The position numbers and the translations under genes are program-made. DNA of 36,154 nucleotides from a virus. Positions within the stretch are counted from its first letter, which is position 1, and every line of letters begins with the position of its first letter. The stretch is taken from the UHGV virus genome UHGV-0071286. The stretch is one strand, 5' to 3'. Below the pieces are notes generated by a model, which was not told where the DNA came from, ran no database searches, and was given only the letters and a program-made list of their open reading frames with translations. Shown here one piece after another: positions 11,361 to 29,705 of the stretch.

Positions 11361-11894
11361 TTATCTGTCAATTCCCCAGCACGCCAGCGCACTCTCCTGG
11401 TCGCGACGGGATACCTGACCGTAACAGTTGTTTGAGCGAATACGGCAGTCTCTGCCACCGTCCTTAATCCACCAGCGAATCGCCTCACACGCTCCCCTGC
11501 GATCACCTGCATTAATTCGTTTATAAAACGTCGACGGGAAACACTTACCGGGACCAATGTTGTACGGACAGAATGACGCGATCCCCGCTTTCTGGGGTTC
11601 GGTCAGCGGCACTCTGATGTTTTTCTCCACCCACGCCAGCGCTTTATCACGCTCAATGGCGTTAACCTGGTCGCATTTTTCCTTCGACAACTTCATGCCC
11701 GGGACGACAGGTTTGCCATCCACCATGATGGCACCACGGCAGATGGTCCAGATCCCCGCACCATCACGGTATGCCGTGGTGTGGTTACCTTCTTTTTCGT
11801 CAAGAAACTGGTCGATGATTTCAGGCGCAGAAGCACCTGCCGCAATCAGCGCCAGAACGGCTACCGATAAACCATAGTGGAGTTTCTGAGTCAC
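11361..11894 (-). CDS. R: Endolysin (lysozyme R) with N-terminal SAR-like hydrophobic segment, 177 aa
   Basis: Near-identical by recall to Stx-phage/phage-21-type lysozyme R (…EGNHTTAYRDGAGIWTICRG…CYGQVSRRDQESALACWGIDR); hydrophobic N-terminus YGLSVAVLALIAAGASA. Confidence 0.9.
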   Translation of the reverse strand: MTQKLHYGLSVAVLALIAAGASAPEIIDQFLDEKEGNHTTAYRDGAGIWTICRGAIMVDGKPVVPGMKLSKEKCDQVNAIERDKALAWVEKNIRVPLTEPQKAGIASFCPYNIGPGKCFPSTFYKRINAGDRRGACEAIRWWIKDGGRDCRIRSNNCYGQVSRRDQESALACWGIDR

Positions 11895-12841: not shown

Positions 12842-14815
12842 TTATGCTGCTACGGCATTCACACCAACAGTAAGACTTTCAATCAGCACAGGGTAAGTTG
12901 CCGCATTTCCGGTAATATCCGTAATTGCCAGCGCGTTGGCCTCAAAGGCTGCATTCGTCCATCTGGTCAGCGTAAACGGTTTTCCTGCTGCATTATCAAG
13001 CACCGGCGTGACGTTCAGCGAGCCACCACCCGGGAAGCGGAAAGTCAGCGTGTGCCAGTCGTGATCGAACGGACCATAACTACCAAGCCGCTGTGATGTG
13101 GTGTTTGCATGATACATCACATTGATGTTTGTTTTATCAGTCTGCAGATAGAAGGCCGCAATATAACCCTCCTCTGATTCCGCTCCCGGCCATCCACTAC
13201 CGCGCCAGTAAATACCCGCAGAATATTGATTTGCAGAAGCATTGAGAGATACATCATCGGGGATTTTAAAGCGCAGCGTGATTTCACCGCCGTTATCGAA
13301 CAGCTCCTTCCCCTTACCGGCATCAATTGCGTGCGATACTTTCCAGGTCTTTTTCTGTGCAAGACCATTTTCTGGTTTTTCAAGACGAAGGGCTTTTTTA
13401 CCTGAACCACTGTCACTGACCAGCGTGTTTTTGACATCTGTCAGCGTCCAGCCCTGCGAAGCCAGATCGGCATTTTCCGCATTCGCATCATAAGCCAGCA
13501 CTGACTGTATCTTTGTCGGGACAACGGATTCAGGCTGAGTATCGCCACTCTCCTGTGCTGGTTGCGATACGCCTCCGCCTGAAGAAACCGCGGCTTTTGT
13601 CACTTTCCCGGAAACAAAATCTGCCACTCTGCCCACATGCAGAAGAATGGCTGTTGCCAGACGGTCGGAAATAATTCCGCGACGCGCCCATGAACCAAAG
13701 TGGGTTTTACGATCGGATGTTGTCCAGCTCTTCGCATCCGTTCGTCCACCGGAACCATAATACCCGATAGCCGGAATATCCGGGTCTTCTGACGGTTCAT
13801 TGGTCCCGACTTTCTGACCATTGTCATCCATCATAAACGGCACAAAGAAGATATTTTTACCGGCTTTGGTTTTGTATGCGCCATAGACGGCATCGTATTG
13901 CGCTGAATACGTCTCCTTCCAGTAGTACGTCGTGTCACCACAAATCCAGGGCACCAGAGAAGGAGAAGCACCAGCGCACTGACCGGATACTCCCGCCAGG
14001 TCAGAACGGTATTTTTCCACCATGGCATCAAACATGGCGGGCTGACTGGCGTACGCTCCCTGTTTTAAATCAAACTCGCCCTGCATCCAGACAACACAAA
14101 GCAGTATGTTTTTGGGGTTTGCCTTCAGCGCGGCCTGAGTGCGTGTCAGCAGGTCTTTATACAACGGCTTATCAACGCCCCATCGTTCAGATTTATCCGA
14201 CGCTCCTGAACTTTCACTGAACGTTCCGTCAGCACCGGCTGTAAACGCAGAGCCACCACGACAGCACGGCACTAACAAAATACCCGCATTTTCCGGCATA
14301 AAGGGCAACAGCTTTTTGGCAATATGCAATCCCTGTCCGACACACCCATACTGCTCTGCGCTGGCTTTCGGATGAGAAAAACGGCTCAAATCCTGCACAT
14401 CATGCAGGCAGTGGTCCGCCGGAATGATGTCGTTATATGCACAGGCCGCACCACCCGGTGTCACCGTACTGCGACGCGCCAGCTGTTTAATACGCGGGTC
14501 CGGACGGTCATATGTCTCCGGCAGCGGCAGGCCTTCACCATACGCCATGCCGTTTGACTGTCCGGCCAGCGCAATGACAAAGTAATATTCTGGTTCAACA
14601 ACAACAGTCCGGGTACCATCTCCCCCCGGTGAAACTACCGGAGAGGTCATATCCCCTTCAGCGACTATAGCCTGGATAAATTCAGCACCATAACCCGCGT
14701 TTGAGATAATCGGACTACCATAGGGTTGCCAGCCTTCCTTCAGTTTTTGCGTCAGTTTTCCTGCGAGGTCTGACGGCGATGATGCCCTGACCACGTCATA
14801 GTGTTTAAATGCCAT
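12842..14815 (-). CDS. nanS-p: Prophage sialate O-acetylesterase NanS-p-like protein (657 aa from MAFKHYDVV)
   Basis: N-terminus MAFKHYDVVRASSPSDLAGKLTQKLKEGWQP matches the NanS-p family found in the late region of Stx-type phages (recall); ATG at 14815 with SD GGGAGG 5 nt upstream. Confidence 0.75.
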   Translation of the reverse strand: MAFKHYDVVRASSPSDLAGKLTQKLKEGWQPYGSPIISNAGYGAEFIQAIVAEGDMTSPVVSPGGDGTRTVVVEPEYYFVIALAGQSNGMAYGEGLPLPETYDRPDPRIKQLARRSTVTPGGAACAYNDIIPADHCLHDVQDLSRFSHPKASAEQYGCVGQGLHIAKKLLPFMPENAGILLVPCCRGGSAFTAGADGTFSESSGASDKSERWGVDKPLYKDLLTRTQAALKANPKNILLCVVWMQGEFDLKQGAYASQPAMFDAMVEKYRSDLAGVSGQCAGASPSLVPWICGDTTYYWKETYSAQYDAVYGAYKTKAGKNIFFVPFMMDDNGQKVGTNEPSEDPDIPAIGYYGSGGRTDAKSWTTSDRKTHFGSWARRGIISDRLATAILLHVGRVADFVSGKVTKAAVSSGGGVSQPAQESGDTQPESVVPTKIQSVLAYDANAENADLASQGWTLTDVKNTLVSDSGSGKKALRLEKPENGLAQKKTWKVSHAIDAGKGKELFDNGGEITLRFKIPDDVSLNASANQYSAGIYWRGSGWPGAESEEGYIAAFYLQTDKTNINVMYHANTTSQRLGSYGPFDHDWHTLTFRFPGGGSLNVTPVLDNAAGKPFTLTRWTNAAFEANALAITDITGNAATYPVLIESLTVGVNAVAA

Positions 14816-15016
14816 TATTCCTCCCGGCAGGGATAGTGTATGCAATCAAGATAAGGTGCGGGCTGACGTCAGTCATGGACAAGGGTTCAGAAACAGGAGG
14901 ATGACTACAGCCCGCAATACGAAAAAGACCATACAGTTGCGCAGAGTGATTACTATCAGGTATTATTCGCCAGCTGAAAATTGATCACTTCACGTTTTGT
15001 TGTTTATTCCTTGCCA

Positions 15017-15045
15017 CCCGCGCTTCCCGGCGCGGGCTTTTTTTT
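15017..15045 (+). terminator. Plus-strand intrinsic terminator right of nanS-p
   Basis: Hairpin CCCGCGC-TTCCCG-GCGCGGG (15017-15036) followed by CTTTTTTTT. Confidence 0.45.
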
Positions 15046-15058
15046 ATCCAACAAGAAA

Positions 15059-15293
15059 GCCCCTCCGGAGAGGGGCTGGAGAGTAGCGCTATGTACCGTT
15101 CATGCATGGTGCAGGGTGCCTCCCGGTGAGTTCAGTATCAGCACCTGAACCCGCACCAGAAAGGATAAGGGGTGTGACCAAACACCTGTCGCTGATATGC
15201 CCCTCCGCACAGGGGGATTCACCATGCCATATTTTTTTAACAAACTTCCCGCTGGCCAGACAATAATCGCCAGCCTGAATTGTGAGTAACGTG
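15059..15293 (-). repeat. sRNA-like repeat unit 1, ending in an intrinsic terminator on the minus strand
   Basis: Paralogous to 15542..15755 in blocks (shared 18-bp perfect palindrome GCCCCTCCGGAGAGGGGC at the 3' end, shared GGGGGATTCACCA, TTTTTAACAAA, CCAGACAAT, GAATTGTGAG). On the minus strand the palindrome is followed by UUUCUUGU. Confidence 0.6.
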
Positions 15294-15323
15294 GCATTTT
15301 ACGGGAAAACTGTTTTCTGCAGT

Positions 15324-15540
15324 AAAAAGGCCCGCCGGAGCGAGCCTGGAAGGATAGCGGTCATGTGATGCCGGTTTCCCGGTAACTCAGCATCGGTATC
15401 TGAGTCAACGTTTTCTCTACTGGGTCATTTCCGATACGTTCCGCCTTCCGGCAGACTTTCATCACGTCAGAAAATATAGCACCCTGAGTAACAGGACAGT
15501 ACTCAGAATTCAGGAAACTGTGACACATCCTGCACAGAAA
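15324..15540 (-). other. Third, more diverged sRNA-like unit with its own terminator
   Basis: Minus-strand hairpin GGCUCGC-UCCG-GCGGGCC (15329-15346) followed by UUUUUACUG; upstream segment shares the ACCGGGA…CATG…GCTA pattern with units 1 and 2. Confidence 0.35.
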
Positions 15541-15541
15541 A

Positions 15542-15755
15542 GCCCCTCCGGAGAGGGGCTGAAGTATAGCCTAATTTCTGTCTGTCGCATGGTGCCAGGT
15601 GCCTCCCGGTAAATTCAGCCTGGCTACTGAATTTGCATGTTCGCTGGATCATACACTTTGCCAGATGCCCCGCCGCTGAGGGGGATTCACCACGCGATGC
15701 AATTTTTAACAAATTCTCCGGCAGCCAGACAATCATCAAGCTGTGGAATTGTGAG
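15542..15755 (-). repeat. sRNA-like repeat unit 2, ending in an intrinsic terminator on the minus strand
   Basis: Same architecture as unit 1; identical terminal palindrome 15542-15559 followed on the minus strand by UUUUCUGUG. Confidence 0.6.
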
Positions 15756-16074
15756 GTATTTAAAAATTTCGCAGCCTCTTGCCACCCGCTTTTCACAAAA
15801 ATCGTATGTAGAAGGCCGCAGCGTAACTATCACTGATGAATTCAGGACACCCAGAGGCTACGGCTCAGTTTGGATTGTGGCGGCCGGAATCGAACCAGCT
15901 CCCATCGGTGCGCTGCCGATTACAATACGCGCGGCGATCCGCTACATGACTAGTATTTTCACAGTCGCCTGTCTGCTAGCTCGCCATTGAGCTTCACCAC
16001 AACGATAAGAGCACTGCGCACACCTTTCACCAATTCCACGAGGTCTGCGGGTTCAATGCTCTTACCTGTTGTGC

Positions 16075-16106
16075 AAACAAAAAGCCCCGACATTTCTGCC
16101 GAGGCC
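16075..16106 (-). terminator. tR'-like intrinsic terminator about 130 nt downstream of the putative PR'
   Basis: Minus-strand hairpin (stem with two G-U pairs, loop AGAAAU) at 16084-16106 followed by CUUUUUGUUU. Confidence 0.5.
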
Positions 16107-16212
16107 TTTACCTAATCTAGCCAGTATGCCGATCCTAAATATTATCGACGACCGAGGTAAATCAGGATTTCTCTTTCGCTTCTCAGTGCGCTTTTGCTCC
16201 GAGCATACACAA

Positions 16213-16241
16213 AACATACTACTTTCATTTCTCGAAAGCAA
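16213..16241 (-). promoter_or_regulatory. Putative late promoter PR' (-35 TTGCTT, 17-nt spacer, -10 TATGTT)
   Basis: Sigma-70-like hexamers on the minus strand 25 nt downstream of the putative Q stop; plus-strand coordinates 16236-16241 (-35) and 16213-16218 (-10). Confidence 0.45.
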
Positions 16242-16265
16242 CGCATTTACAAAAAATATTTTGCA

Positions 16266-16880
16266 TCATCCAGCAATCACTAGAAGTTCTTTCTCCAATT
16301 CTCGCTTCATTGCATAAAACATTTCTGAATCAAGGACCCTCTCGCACCACACGACCCGCCTCCGGCAATACTGAATATCAACTCCTGTTATCTGAGAAAT
16401 CATCCTGGCGATATCTTGCGTGCTGTCGCGATTGCAATATCGCCTAATAGCTACATCACGGACAGGGCTTTCACGATGAAAGGTCTCAACCATCACACGT
16501 TCAACGAAAGCAGCATCATCGGATTCTTTGGCGAGAGCAATGATATTACCTGCCGATGACTGAGGGATGACCAGTTCTCGGGCTTTCTGATGGAGTTCAT
16601 CTCCACGTAGTCCGTCTTCTTCATACAGACGCATGACAACAGACTCAATCTGCTTAGCTTTGTCATCGCTCCACTGACTGCGAATCATCAGTCGCCCAAT
16701 AACGTTAATTGCACCACAAGGAGAATCATCACCAGCGTTAACATTTCCCCATACCTGTAGCATGTAGTGAACCCATGCTTTCTGACGAGAGTTAATGATT
16801 TTCTTCGGATGCCTCCATATGCGGCGGAAATGAGCATCATTAATAAAGTTAACCATGCCGAATACTGGGGTTAGCCGCAT
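16266..16880 (-). CDS. Putative late-gene antiterminator Q (204 aa from MRLTPVF)
   Basis: Last gene of the nin region, immediately upstream of the PR'-tR' unit. Assignment is positional; the sequence is not lambda Q. Confidence 0.45.
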   Translation of the reverse strand: MRLTPVFGMVNFINDAHFRRIWRHPKKIINSRQKAWVHYMLQVWGNVNAGDDSPCGAINVIGRLMIRSQWSDDKAKQIESVVMRLYEEDGLRGDELHQKARELVIPQSSAGNIIALAKESDDAAFVERVMVETFHRESPVRDVAIRRYCNRDSTQDIARMISQITGVDIQYCRRRVVWCERVLDSEMFYAMKRELEKELLVIAG

Positions 16881-17122
16881 CACAGCCCCCATCCTTTACA
16901 ATGACACCACACTTCAAACATTCGTTTCACAACTTCACGGCAGTAGAAACCGTCAGCATCACGTGTCAGGTCATAGCGATCTCCGTGCTTCAGTCTCATA
17001 TAGCATTCGAATAATCTGTTCATATACTCTTCGCCATGAACTCCGCTATTACGCTGCTCATGCGCTTTTCCAGACGACCTGAATAAAGCCATGCGTTCAG
17101 GCACCTGCTGAATATCACGCAT
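16880..17122 (-). CDS. Hypothetical protein (80 aa from MRDIQQVPE), possibly part of the late-regulator module
   Basis: In-frame ATG at 17122; its stop overlaps the Q start (TGATG). Confidence 0.35.
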   Translation of the reverse strand: MRDIQQVPERMALFRSSGKAHEQRNSGVHGEEYMNRLFECYMRLKHGDRYDLTRDADGFYCREVVKRMFEVWCHCKGWGL

Positions 17123-19339: not shown

Positions 19340-19647
19340 GACAACGCCCTCTGGTTGATGAATTTAACTATCACCACCGTCAGGTGCAAATCTTTGGGTG
19401 GTGAGACGTACAGGGTTTGCACTACCGGATCAACCAACCGGCGAGCCTTTCGGCTCCCCCATACGCCCCACCATAATTCAGATGTGCGTGTGCTTACGAC
19501 AACAAAAAACACGCTCGCGGCGTGTGTCTGTCGCGGTTGAATATCCGGGGTGCAAATCCCGACGCCAGATTTTGCTGGCGTGCGAAGAATATAATCCCGG
19601 ATATGTGTTGTCGTCAACATACCTTGAATGTATATAACAAATTTGTT

Positions 19648-29027: not shown

Positions 29028-29483
29028 AAATTCACTCTCCTTACGGGGTTTGTAGTTGAGGAGTTCTCCACGGGTGAGGTGGAGATCGTGCGCCGGACAC
29101 GGGTGAGTTCCTGCACTCTCAGTTTACTGAACAGACATTACCCTGAAAGCCAGGGTACTACACGAAAGCGCGAGGCGAAGACTCTTTCCCATAGAAGGAT
29201 TGTCGTTAGATTTCTTCGACCGTGCGCTTCCGGTTGTGAATAACAACATTGCTGTGTGTAACCCTTGGCGGATATCGGTTTGCCGATTGCTGATGTCCGC
29301 CCTTTTTAAAGTGAATTTTGTGATGCGGTGAATGCGGCTATGCGCACGCGGAACAGTTAAACCGACAGGATGTCACGGAAAGTCATCGTCCCCTGACCCG
29401 GCGTTAGTTGTTAACTGGTTAACGTCACCTGGAGGCACCAGGCACCGCATCAACAAAGTTCATTTGTGAAAATGGAGATAATT

Positions 29484-29705
29484 ATGATTGCTCATCACTT
29501 CGGAACTGATGAAATACCACGTCAGTGCGTGACGCCTGGCGATTATGTTCTTCATGAAGGTCGGACATATATCGCTTCAGCAAACAATATTGAAAAGAGA
29601 AAACTCTATATTCGTAACTTCACAACAAAAACATGCATTACCGACTGCATGATTAAAGTTTTCATCGGGCGCGATGGCTTACCCGTAAAAGCAGCGTCGT
29701 TGTGA
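29484..29705 (+). CDS. Hypothetical small protein (73 aa from MIAHHFG)
   Basis: ATG at 29484 with SD GGAG 7 nt upstream (track start 29466 is a GTG). Confidence 0.35.

Follow-up and report, generated by a model that had tools for sequence, protein, structure and literature searches.

Our analysis of the virus genome UHGV-0071286 from the UHGV collection, a stretch of 36,154 nucleotides (nt) that is referred to here as the window, supports the presence on its minus strand (15760-15050) of three separate genes for small RNAs (sRNAs) of the STnc100/EcOnc27/PasD superfamily. The three units stand back to back and are named A, B, and C in the order of transcription. They probably encode separately transcribed, Hfq-dependent, base-pairing sRNAs of this known family, which share a 5' scaffold and differ in their 3' seeds. 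The kind of element is already known; new are the tandem arrangement, a middle subtype that scores below the Rfam threshold, and a design in which one scaffold is combined with different cassettes. A preliminary description, made from the letters of the window, had interpreted the region as regulatory sRNAs, an idea that is supported by the STnc100 matches of A and C and by experimentally supported members of that family.

The predicted starts of A and B are 228 nt apart and those of B and C are 240 nt apart, in agreement with the three consecutive minus-strand units described earlier. The identity between A and C is about 75%, and that of B to either of them is about 66 to 71%. Thus, the preliminary description was right in recognizing two clear paralogues, but the pair consists of the first and third units and not of the first and second; likewise, the diverged unit is the middle one, B, and not the third. 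Each unit was also said to end in an intrinsic terminator of its own, and this is confirmed by a consensus scan of 14800-16400, which found 11 terminator-like sites compared with 1.9 +/- 1.4 in shuffled sequence. The G+C-rich hairpins at the unit ends, each followed by a T-run, lie at 15560..15541 (A), 15347..15328 (B), and 15077..15058 (C). The hairpin of A and C is the same 20 nt (AGCCCCTCTCCGGAGGGGCT), with a stem of 8 base pairs (bp) and a 4-nt loop; the palindrome had been correctly reported as identical in both paralogues, but it is not a perfect one of 18 bp. The compensatory change that had been read from an internal hairpin (CCCCT...AGGGG versus CCCC...GGGG) does not hold, because it is a one-sided A-to-C change that breaks a U-A pair in A and that cmscan marks as a non-standard pair.

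All three predicted RNAs have the same parts. Unit A (15537..15695, minus strand, about 159 nt) would consist of the scaffold (15695-15587), a single-stranded linker termed V2 (15586-15561, GACAGACAGAAAUUAGGCUAUACUUC), and the terminator (15560-15541) followed by UUUUC. Unit B, the diverged member (15323..15467, minus strand, about 145 nt), is predicted to have its scaffold at about 15467-15365, V2 at 15364-15348 (AUGACCGCUAUCCUUCC), and the terminator (15347-15328) followed by UUUUU. In unit C (15050..15227, minus strand, about 178 nt), the corresponding parts are the scaffold (15227-15104), V2 (15103-15078, AUGAACGGUACAUAGCGCUACUCUCC), and the terminator (15077-15058) followed by UUUCUUGUU.

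A search with Rfam covariance models, which the preliminary description had suggested as a check, returned full-length matches of A and C to STnc100 (RF02076, gathering score of 47 bits). A scores 138.7 bits at 15725..15532 and C scores 129.9 bits at 15256..15047, both on the minus strand and both spanning model positions 1-206, and the two units are therefore members of STnc100 by the Rfam score. A search with looser settings adds a weak match of 30 bits for unit B at 15496..15321, which also runs over the full length of the model. For a scaffold-only comparison, we used a covariance model, R1, built from 13 sequences with no B-type or dicB-leader sequence in the training set. R1 finds A (106 bits), C (112.4 bits), and also B (27.7 bits, E = 3e-4), as well as another allele of B (31.3 bits, E = 5e-5). 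Unit B is thus a real but diverged relative, which is not a member by the Rfam threshold but is one by its structure. Specific to B are an extended -10 promoter, a different P2 helix, and a GAAA loop on the P5 helix.

The preliminary description had further mentioned the anti-sRNAs of enterohemorrhagic Escherichia coli (EHEC) prophages. Kinship of the units with them finds no support: neither AgvB (RF02702) nor AsxR (RF02703) gives a match, whether 14700-16400 is searched at E <= 10 or the whole window at E <= 0.1. AgvB and AsxR are RNAs of 51 to 60 nt that are encoded on the strand opposite the late operon; the units measure 145 to 180 nt and lie on the late strand, and together with the missing covariance-model matches this led us to reject their assignment to AgvB or AsxR. 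AsxR and AgvB do turn up at the homologous position in other prophage loci (L005, L129, L130, and L132), and the units of the window correspond to the sense-strand partner of the gene pairs to which they belong.

Promoter-like sequences precede each unit. For A, TTGTCT (15732-15727) is followed by an 18-nt spacer, TAAAAA (15708-15703), 7 nt, and G15695 (putative promoter region, 15703..15732, minus strand); the candidate promoter of C (15234..15263, minus strand) has TTGTCT at 15263-15258, an 18-nt spacer, and TAAAAA. The same geometry (TTGTCT or TTGACT, 18 nt, TAAAAA, 7 nt, and the start) is common to A, C, and PasD2 and is kept in most family members. Sequence reading of unit B points to an extended -10 element (TGCTATATT, 15473..15481, minus strand), which stays conserved in both B alleles while the alleles diverge upstream of it. 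The 5' end of PasD2 has been set from RNA sequencing (RNA-seq) coverage at the G of GCATGGTG. By homology with this G, transcription is predicted to start at 15695 (A), 15227 (C), and about 15467-15465 (B). Because of the same homology, roughly the first 28 positions in the STnc100 model of Rfam are probably promoter DNA and not RNA. A conserved box (CTCACAATTC) lies upstream of A (15746..15755) and of C (15277..15286) on the minus strand, about 50 to 60 nt before the predicted starts, and also precedes most STnc100-type units at other loci. Within the box is CUCACA, which has been reported as a motif of PasD targets. The box may serve as the binding site of a regulator, or it may be relevant in read-through transcripts only; a CRP site was considered and rejected, since the left half-site is poor as judged by eye.

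Folding from the predicted starts gives a common plan: a closing helix P1 (8 bp in A and C, 6 bp in B), P2, a variable segment V1, P4, P5 abutting the 3' strand of P1, the unpaired V2 (17 to 26 nt, different in each unit), and the terminator. All three units align to a scaffold in which P1 encloses P2, P4, and P5 and in which compensatory changes occur. The minimum free energy fold of unit B alone pairs its center differently, with P4 not formed; P4 of this unit is supported by the family alignment. Across the family, real covariation is located in P1, P2, P4, and P5. In a MAFFT alignment of 21 distinct family sequences, including both B alleles, PasD2, and EcOnc27 (alignment A2), 94.6% of the cells are paired and two-sided changes occur at 14 of 34 pairs, a level reached in none of 500 shuffles; pairing with slid partners falls to 39 to 52%. 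The corresponding values for an alignment fitted to R1 (alignment A4), which leans toward structure by its making, are 95.7% of cells paired (37 to 47% with slid partners) and two-sided changes at 17 of 26 pairs, again with 0 of 500 shuffles as high. Unit B has compensatory pairs relative to A and C, and its two alleles have such pairs relative to each other. The P5 loop (AGGCA) and a junction (AAUC) are nearly invariant in the family.

The array lies where the preliminary description had placed it, between tR' and nanS-p, as judged from a flanking Q-like gene, a tR'-like hairpin, and an esterase gene. The Q-like late antiterminator gene (16266..16892, minus strand) matches phrog_753 (“anti-termination protein Q-like,” E = 3.5e-68) and has no Pfam match. 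It is followed by a hairpin at about 16109..16075 on the minus strand with a 13-bp stem, a GAAA loop, and UUUUUGUUU (-18.9 kcal/mol, z = -4.5). Its features support an assignment as tR', just downstream of the presumed late promoter PR', an assignment further supported because the similarity of the window to phage HK75 begins at the end of the annotated Tr' of HK75. On the other side of the array, the nanS-p-like sialate O-acetylesterase gene (12842..14815, minus strand) encodes DUF1737, SASA, and DUF6645 domains; RefSeq has a 657-amino-acid SASA family esterase at the identical locus. Past the esterase gene are DUF1378 and DUF826 open reading frames (ORFs), a P21-type holin gene, and a lysozyme gene. 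The units thus occupy the location of the superfamily, on the late strand, with the Q/PR' region on one side and the genes for the esterase and for lysis on the other. The locus is identical in Escherichia phage PhiR5_2 and in a few human-associated E. coli isolates. Two hypothetical proteins are annotated here in the PhiR5_2 record and one in a RefSeq record, and no noncoding RNA feature is listed in the inspected phage and RefSeq records of the locus.

Facing unit C is a convergent sRNA gene (14894..15044, plus strand), antisense to the nanS-p leader, whose terminator (15017-15036) is followed by U8. [quoted passage not shown] In EPEC E2348/69, this sRNA likewise faces a PasD-like scaffold, as found with R1, and at other loci the convergent partner is AsxR or AgvB. 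An identification of the convergent RNA of the window as AgvB or AsxR was rejected for lack of a covariance-model match. Convergent genes for Hfq-binding sRNAs between the PR' cargo and a conserved ORF before the lysis genes have been described in eight Sakai prophages (Tree et al. 2014, PMC4104026), and a 2021 review names them “dyads” and calls the reason for the arrangement unclear. The window contains such a published sRNA dyad, enlarged to three genes on the sense side. The convergent gene also carries a G/U-rich stretch, CACGUUUUGUUGUUUAUUCC.

The closest known relatives have been studied by experiment. Among eleven STnc100 copies of EDL933 with RNA-seq read counts, one (STnc100_4) has been confirmed by Northern blotting (PMC5331693). 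EcOnc27, also called sRNA103, is the STnc100 copy 3' of stx2B; it has been seen as a discrete species on Northern blots and was recovered with Hfq by cross-linking and analysis of cDNA (Hfq-CRAC) (PMC12711010, PMC7873438). A 2026 preprint reports that PasD1 and PasD2 of EPEC share structure, and probably ancestry, with STnc100, that they lie between Q and the sialate esterase gene, that they were validated by RIL-seq and Northern blotting and depend on Hfq for their stability, and that PasA and PasD copies are dispersed, with no origin by tandem duplication (10.64898/2026.05.13.724894). A motif shared by the RIL-seq targets of PasD (CUCACA) is complementary to a seed in the linker just upstream of the terminator.

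With EcOnc27/STnc100, units A and C share an end-to-end match to the model, the scaffold, the promoter motif, and the type of terminator, and the array has the same place and strand, after the PR' cargo and before a nanS-p-type gene with a convergent sRNA behind it. In the Shiga toxin 2 prophages (Sp5/933W), EcOnc27 is a single gene, whereas the window has a row of three and lacks stx genes; the V1 and V2 segments of its units also differ from those of EcOnc27. PasD1 and PasD2 of E2348/69 (homologues of EcOnc13) resemble the units in P1, P2, P4, the promoter geometry, and the position between Q and the esterase gene, and PasD2 reaches 41 bits against the STnc100 model and 59 bits against R1. 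However, PasD2 apparently lacks the 3' arm of P5, as read from the alignment; its 3' linker is long, rich in U, and contains the seed UUGUGAG, and its tail is U8. Sequence reading found this seed in none of the V2 segments of A, B, and C, and the scaffold alone aligns to PasD; moreover, PasD copies are reported to lie far apart, in contrast to the tandem units seen here. The dyads EcOnc27/AsxR and EcOnc06/AgvB likewise have, in the interval from the late promoter to the lysis genes, one or more sense sRNA genes facing an antisense one, but the antisense partner in the window is of the EcOnc08/21/42 type and the sense side comprises three genes. Neighboring paralogous sRNA genes with their own promoter and terminator and with a shared and a divergent part are also known from OmrA/OmrB and PrrF1/PrrF2. 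The units of the array are paralogous neighbors of the same sort, with the differences that the shared domain is large, structured, and 5' while the divergent 3' cassette is short, and that they lie on a mobile element in which the slots are filled differently in different prophages.

Our survey of 5,426 complete E. coli genomes shows that the family is widespread. Of these, 3,081 have one or more members, at a median of 2 and at most 13 places per genome. Unit B was found in 673 genomes (12%), and the A-B-C stretch, held to at least 80%, also in 673; from these equal counts, B seems to occur only inside the array, as its middle gene. The order strong-weak-strong recurs in six other inspected prophage loci, in which the variants of the first and third slots differ from locus to locus, and C of the window resembles the first-slot unit of other arrays. 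Arrays in phage contigs were surveyed in 100 IMG/VR loci seeded with the scaffold core motif, among which there were about 10 trios, 2 directly adjacent pairs, and 1 set of four tandem units. The last, the largest array seen, is on IMGVR_UViG_2861053794_000003 (L144, 2265..3380, minus strand); its four STnc100 units (77 to 132 bits) are all above the Rfam threshold, with tRNA genes before them and a convergent terminator after them. In 144 copies with an identical 26-nt P5-P1 core, about 18 unrelated classes can be distinguished among the 24 nt that come next. The design of the family is thus a constant scaffold with exchangeable 3' cassettes. A scan of genome contigs with the 16-mer GCRTGGTGAATCCYCC gave chance matches only, in unrelated taxa, and the loci obtained from it (L007-L126) were not used.

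The scaffold is also found outside the late region. A weak STnc100-like element at 29304..29498 (plus strand; 31 bits with Rfam, 42 bits and E = 2e-7 with R1) directly follows a weak DicF-like match (29 bits), the arrangement spanning 29253..29498, and this scaffold copy sits about 25 to 30 nt ahead of the start codon of an ORF. The dicF-dicB spacer of the K-12 Qin prophage (NC_000913, about 1649453..1649583; L138, 854..984) holds a recognizable scaffold in the same arrangement as 29253..29453 of the window (R1, 40 bits, E = 5e-7). P1 and P5 of the dicF-dicB copies differ from those of the late-region copies by compensatory changes. Unlike the units of the array, these copies stand in the leader of a protein gene and have no promoter or terminator of their own. 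We found no published description of a scaffold in the dicF-dicB spacer, and a recent paper on the dicBF operon mentions no structured element there.

We propose that the array occupies the cargo (“moron”) slot of a lambdoid prophage, with the Q-dependent late promoter and terminator on one side and nanS-p and the lysis genes on the other. Before induction, with no Q in the lysogen, the units would be transcribed from their own sigma-70-type promoters as separate RNAs of about 145 to 180 nt, because each has a promoter and an intrinsic terminator of its own; after induction, Q-modified polymerase would read through all the terminators. By analogy with the position of the PasD seed and the cross-linking of EcOnc27 to Hfq, V2 together with the terminator would be the Hfq-binding, target-pairing module, and the three RNAs would act on three different sets of mRNA or sRNA targets. 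We infer where transcription starts, that the RNAs depend on Hfq, that V2 acts as a seed, and what kind of targets they have. In units B and C, V2 (CUAUCCUUCC and CUACUCUCC, respectively) is rich in pyrimidines and could base-pair with sequences that resemble a Shine-Dalgarno site. A target search within the window with the three V2 segments gave best z values of -4.7 to -5.4, which are not decisive for a search confined to the window; the strongest hit, which may be a chance one, pairs V2 of unit C with the 3' end of the lysozyme gene (about 11370..11395, minus-strand RNA, CCAGGAGAGUGCGCUGG; -31.4 kcal/mol, z = -5.4).

Several points weigh against this proposal. A (UUUUC) and C have U-tails that are short or interrupted; longer tails without interruption are usual in sRNAs that depend on Hfq. 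The starts of the units are predicted solely from homology with PasD2. Unit B falls short of the Rfam gathering score (30 bits), with E = 3e-4 in a 1.7-kb search and E = 0.0065 in a search of the whole window. The z-scores of single-sequence folding are modest (-2.0, -2.6, and -1.2 for A, B, and C), and support for the fold comes from covariation and comparison and not from thermodynamic stability alone. Because the same scaffold sits without promoter or terminator in an mRNA leader, it may have a function of its own other than seed pairing. In the literature, no direct target has been established for any STnc100-type RNA, and overexpression of EcOnc27 raises fimZ and espA by a route that is not established (PMC12711010, PMC7873438).

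Four other explanations deserve consideration. The most serious of them, though still an unlikely one, is that the scaffold itself is the functional part, binding a protein or nuclease or controlling stability or processing both in free RNAs and in cis, while the 3' linkers are spacers. It fits with the scaffold being the most conserved part, with strong covariation, with the near invariance of the AGGCA loop of P5 and of the AAUC junction, and with the scaffold copies that follow a DicF-like element in the window (29321..29453, 42 bits with R1) and in the K-12 dicF-dicB spacer. However, the PasD target motif is complementary to the 3' linker and not to the scaffold, and V2 comes in discrete cassettes instead of drifting, a pattern that resembles selection for different specificities; the P5 loop is, moreover, replaced by GAAA in unit B, and PasD2 seems to have lost the 3' arm of P5. 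We consider it improbable that the array is a stack of terminators acting in cis, which in the lysogen would shield nanS-p and lysis genes against read-through from PR' and from cargo promoters, with the RNAs as by-products. There are indeed four serial terminators (tR' and three more) between Q and the late genes, as well as a bidirectional-looking one at 15017-15036, and it counts in favor of such a stack that Q-modified polymerase ignores terminators of this kind in lambdoid late control. Yet a terminator needs about 30 nt, so that about 110 nt of covarying scaffold and a promoter per unit would go unexplained, as would the abundance and the Hfq association of the homologues, and the unit promoters would add to transcription toward the late genes, not reduce it. 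Decay of functionless duplicates in a recombination-prone region is very improbable. The region is highly mosaic, and which STnc100 variants fill the first and third slots differs between prophages, but promoter motifs, helices, and terminators are intact in all three units, and the array is kept in 673 genomes as at least two diverged alleles with differences that preserve base pairing.

The least probable explanation, to which we give hardly any credence, is that the region encodes small proteins (such as a 55-amino-acid one at 15361..15528) or decayed remnants of such genes. The preliminary description had stated that the interval contains no credible ORF; ORFs do exist, but none of them behaves like a gene in Pfam searches or allele comparison. 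The ORFs of 97, 65, and 55 amino acids have no match in Pfam. The last, on the minus strand within unit B, matches phrog_23557 over its full length (E = 2e-45), and the small-protein explanation can also point to the hypothetical proteins annotated in phage records and to a reading frame that stays open in the second B allele. This PHROG family may rest on near-identical sequences: all five phage records with unit B show 100% DNA identity over a 241-nt query containing it. The second B allele, about 85% identical, is the best match in 333 of 675 matching records (about half of the 673 genomes). In it, the ATG start is ATA, the codon differences comprise 5 synonymous and 14 non-synonymous ones and fall on the three codon positions as 8/10/9, and the changes in the P2 stem keep the pairing. 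The phrog_23557 ORF thus has neither a conserved start nor a coding pattern of substitution. In several family members, each of the three forward frames contains stops, and among the 39 RefSeq genomes listed with the whole unit, no feature is annotated under the match to unit B. On the basis of the Pfam and PHROG searches, the allele comparison, and the stops, the coding reading was rejected for the ORFs of 97, 65, 55, and 117 amino acids. That the units are degraded coding sequence, the alternative named in the preliminary description, falls under this same least probable explanation. As a separate observation, RefSeq annotates fragmentary “hypothetical protein” pseudogenes opposite the scaffold in many genomes, for example at L004 (2340..2465), L005 (2325..2465), and L001 (3198..3439). 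Such annotations are probably spurious, spread by similarity to one ORF predicted over an STnc100 gene.

Beyond the proposal of three Hfq-dependent sRNAs, a more speculative view, which we regard as possible but doubtful, is that the scaffold of about 110 nt is an autonomous RNA module of lambdoid phages that displays 3' seed cassettes and serves stability or the binding of a partner. Arrays of two to four units would then have arisen by duplication, with cassettes swapped by recombination between scaffolds; the module would also act in cis in dicB-type leaders, and B would represent a third, so far unrecognized subfamily.

The practical gain of our findings lies in annotation, as some of the inspected phage and RefSeq records carry hypothetical proteins or opposite-strand pseudogene fragments in place of RNA genes. 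The Rfam threshold misses a middle subtype found in 12% of complete E. coli genomes. Relatives of PasD/STnc100 can be tandem, unlike the dispersed PasA and PasD copies of the recent survey. The combination of scaffold and cassettes offers a concrete route to ask for the targets of abundant prophage RNAs, and also a way into the reason for the clustering of sRNA genes at the PR' cargo site. Our findings extend known biology, and the basic picture of prophage-encoded Hfq-dependent sRNAs is unchanged.

A few minor observations concern the surroundings of the array. The spacer between the esterase and holin genes shows no similarity to PasA or PasC and holds the DUF1378 and DUF826 ORFs instead. 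A tRNA-like element (15875..16001, minus strand) scores 26.5 bits, with a gathering score of 29, and has intact acceptor and T arms with a 74-nt insertion at the expected anticodon region; ARAGORN reports no tRNA. A conserved copy (92.7% identity) is present in phage HK75, in the stretch from Tr' to the holin gene. We considered and rejected an origin as a remnant of the ileZ-argN-argO cluster, which fills this position in other prophages, as there is no similarity to that cluster. Farther away, 19394..19594 (minus strand) contains adjoining matches to isrK (75 bits) and to C4 antisense RNA (74 bits), together with a sub-threshold match to the c4-a1b1 target, a group that we take to be an RNA-controlled antirepressor module of the P1/P7 type.

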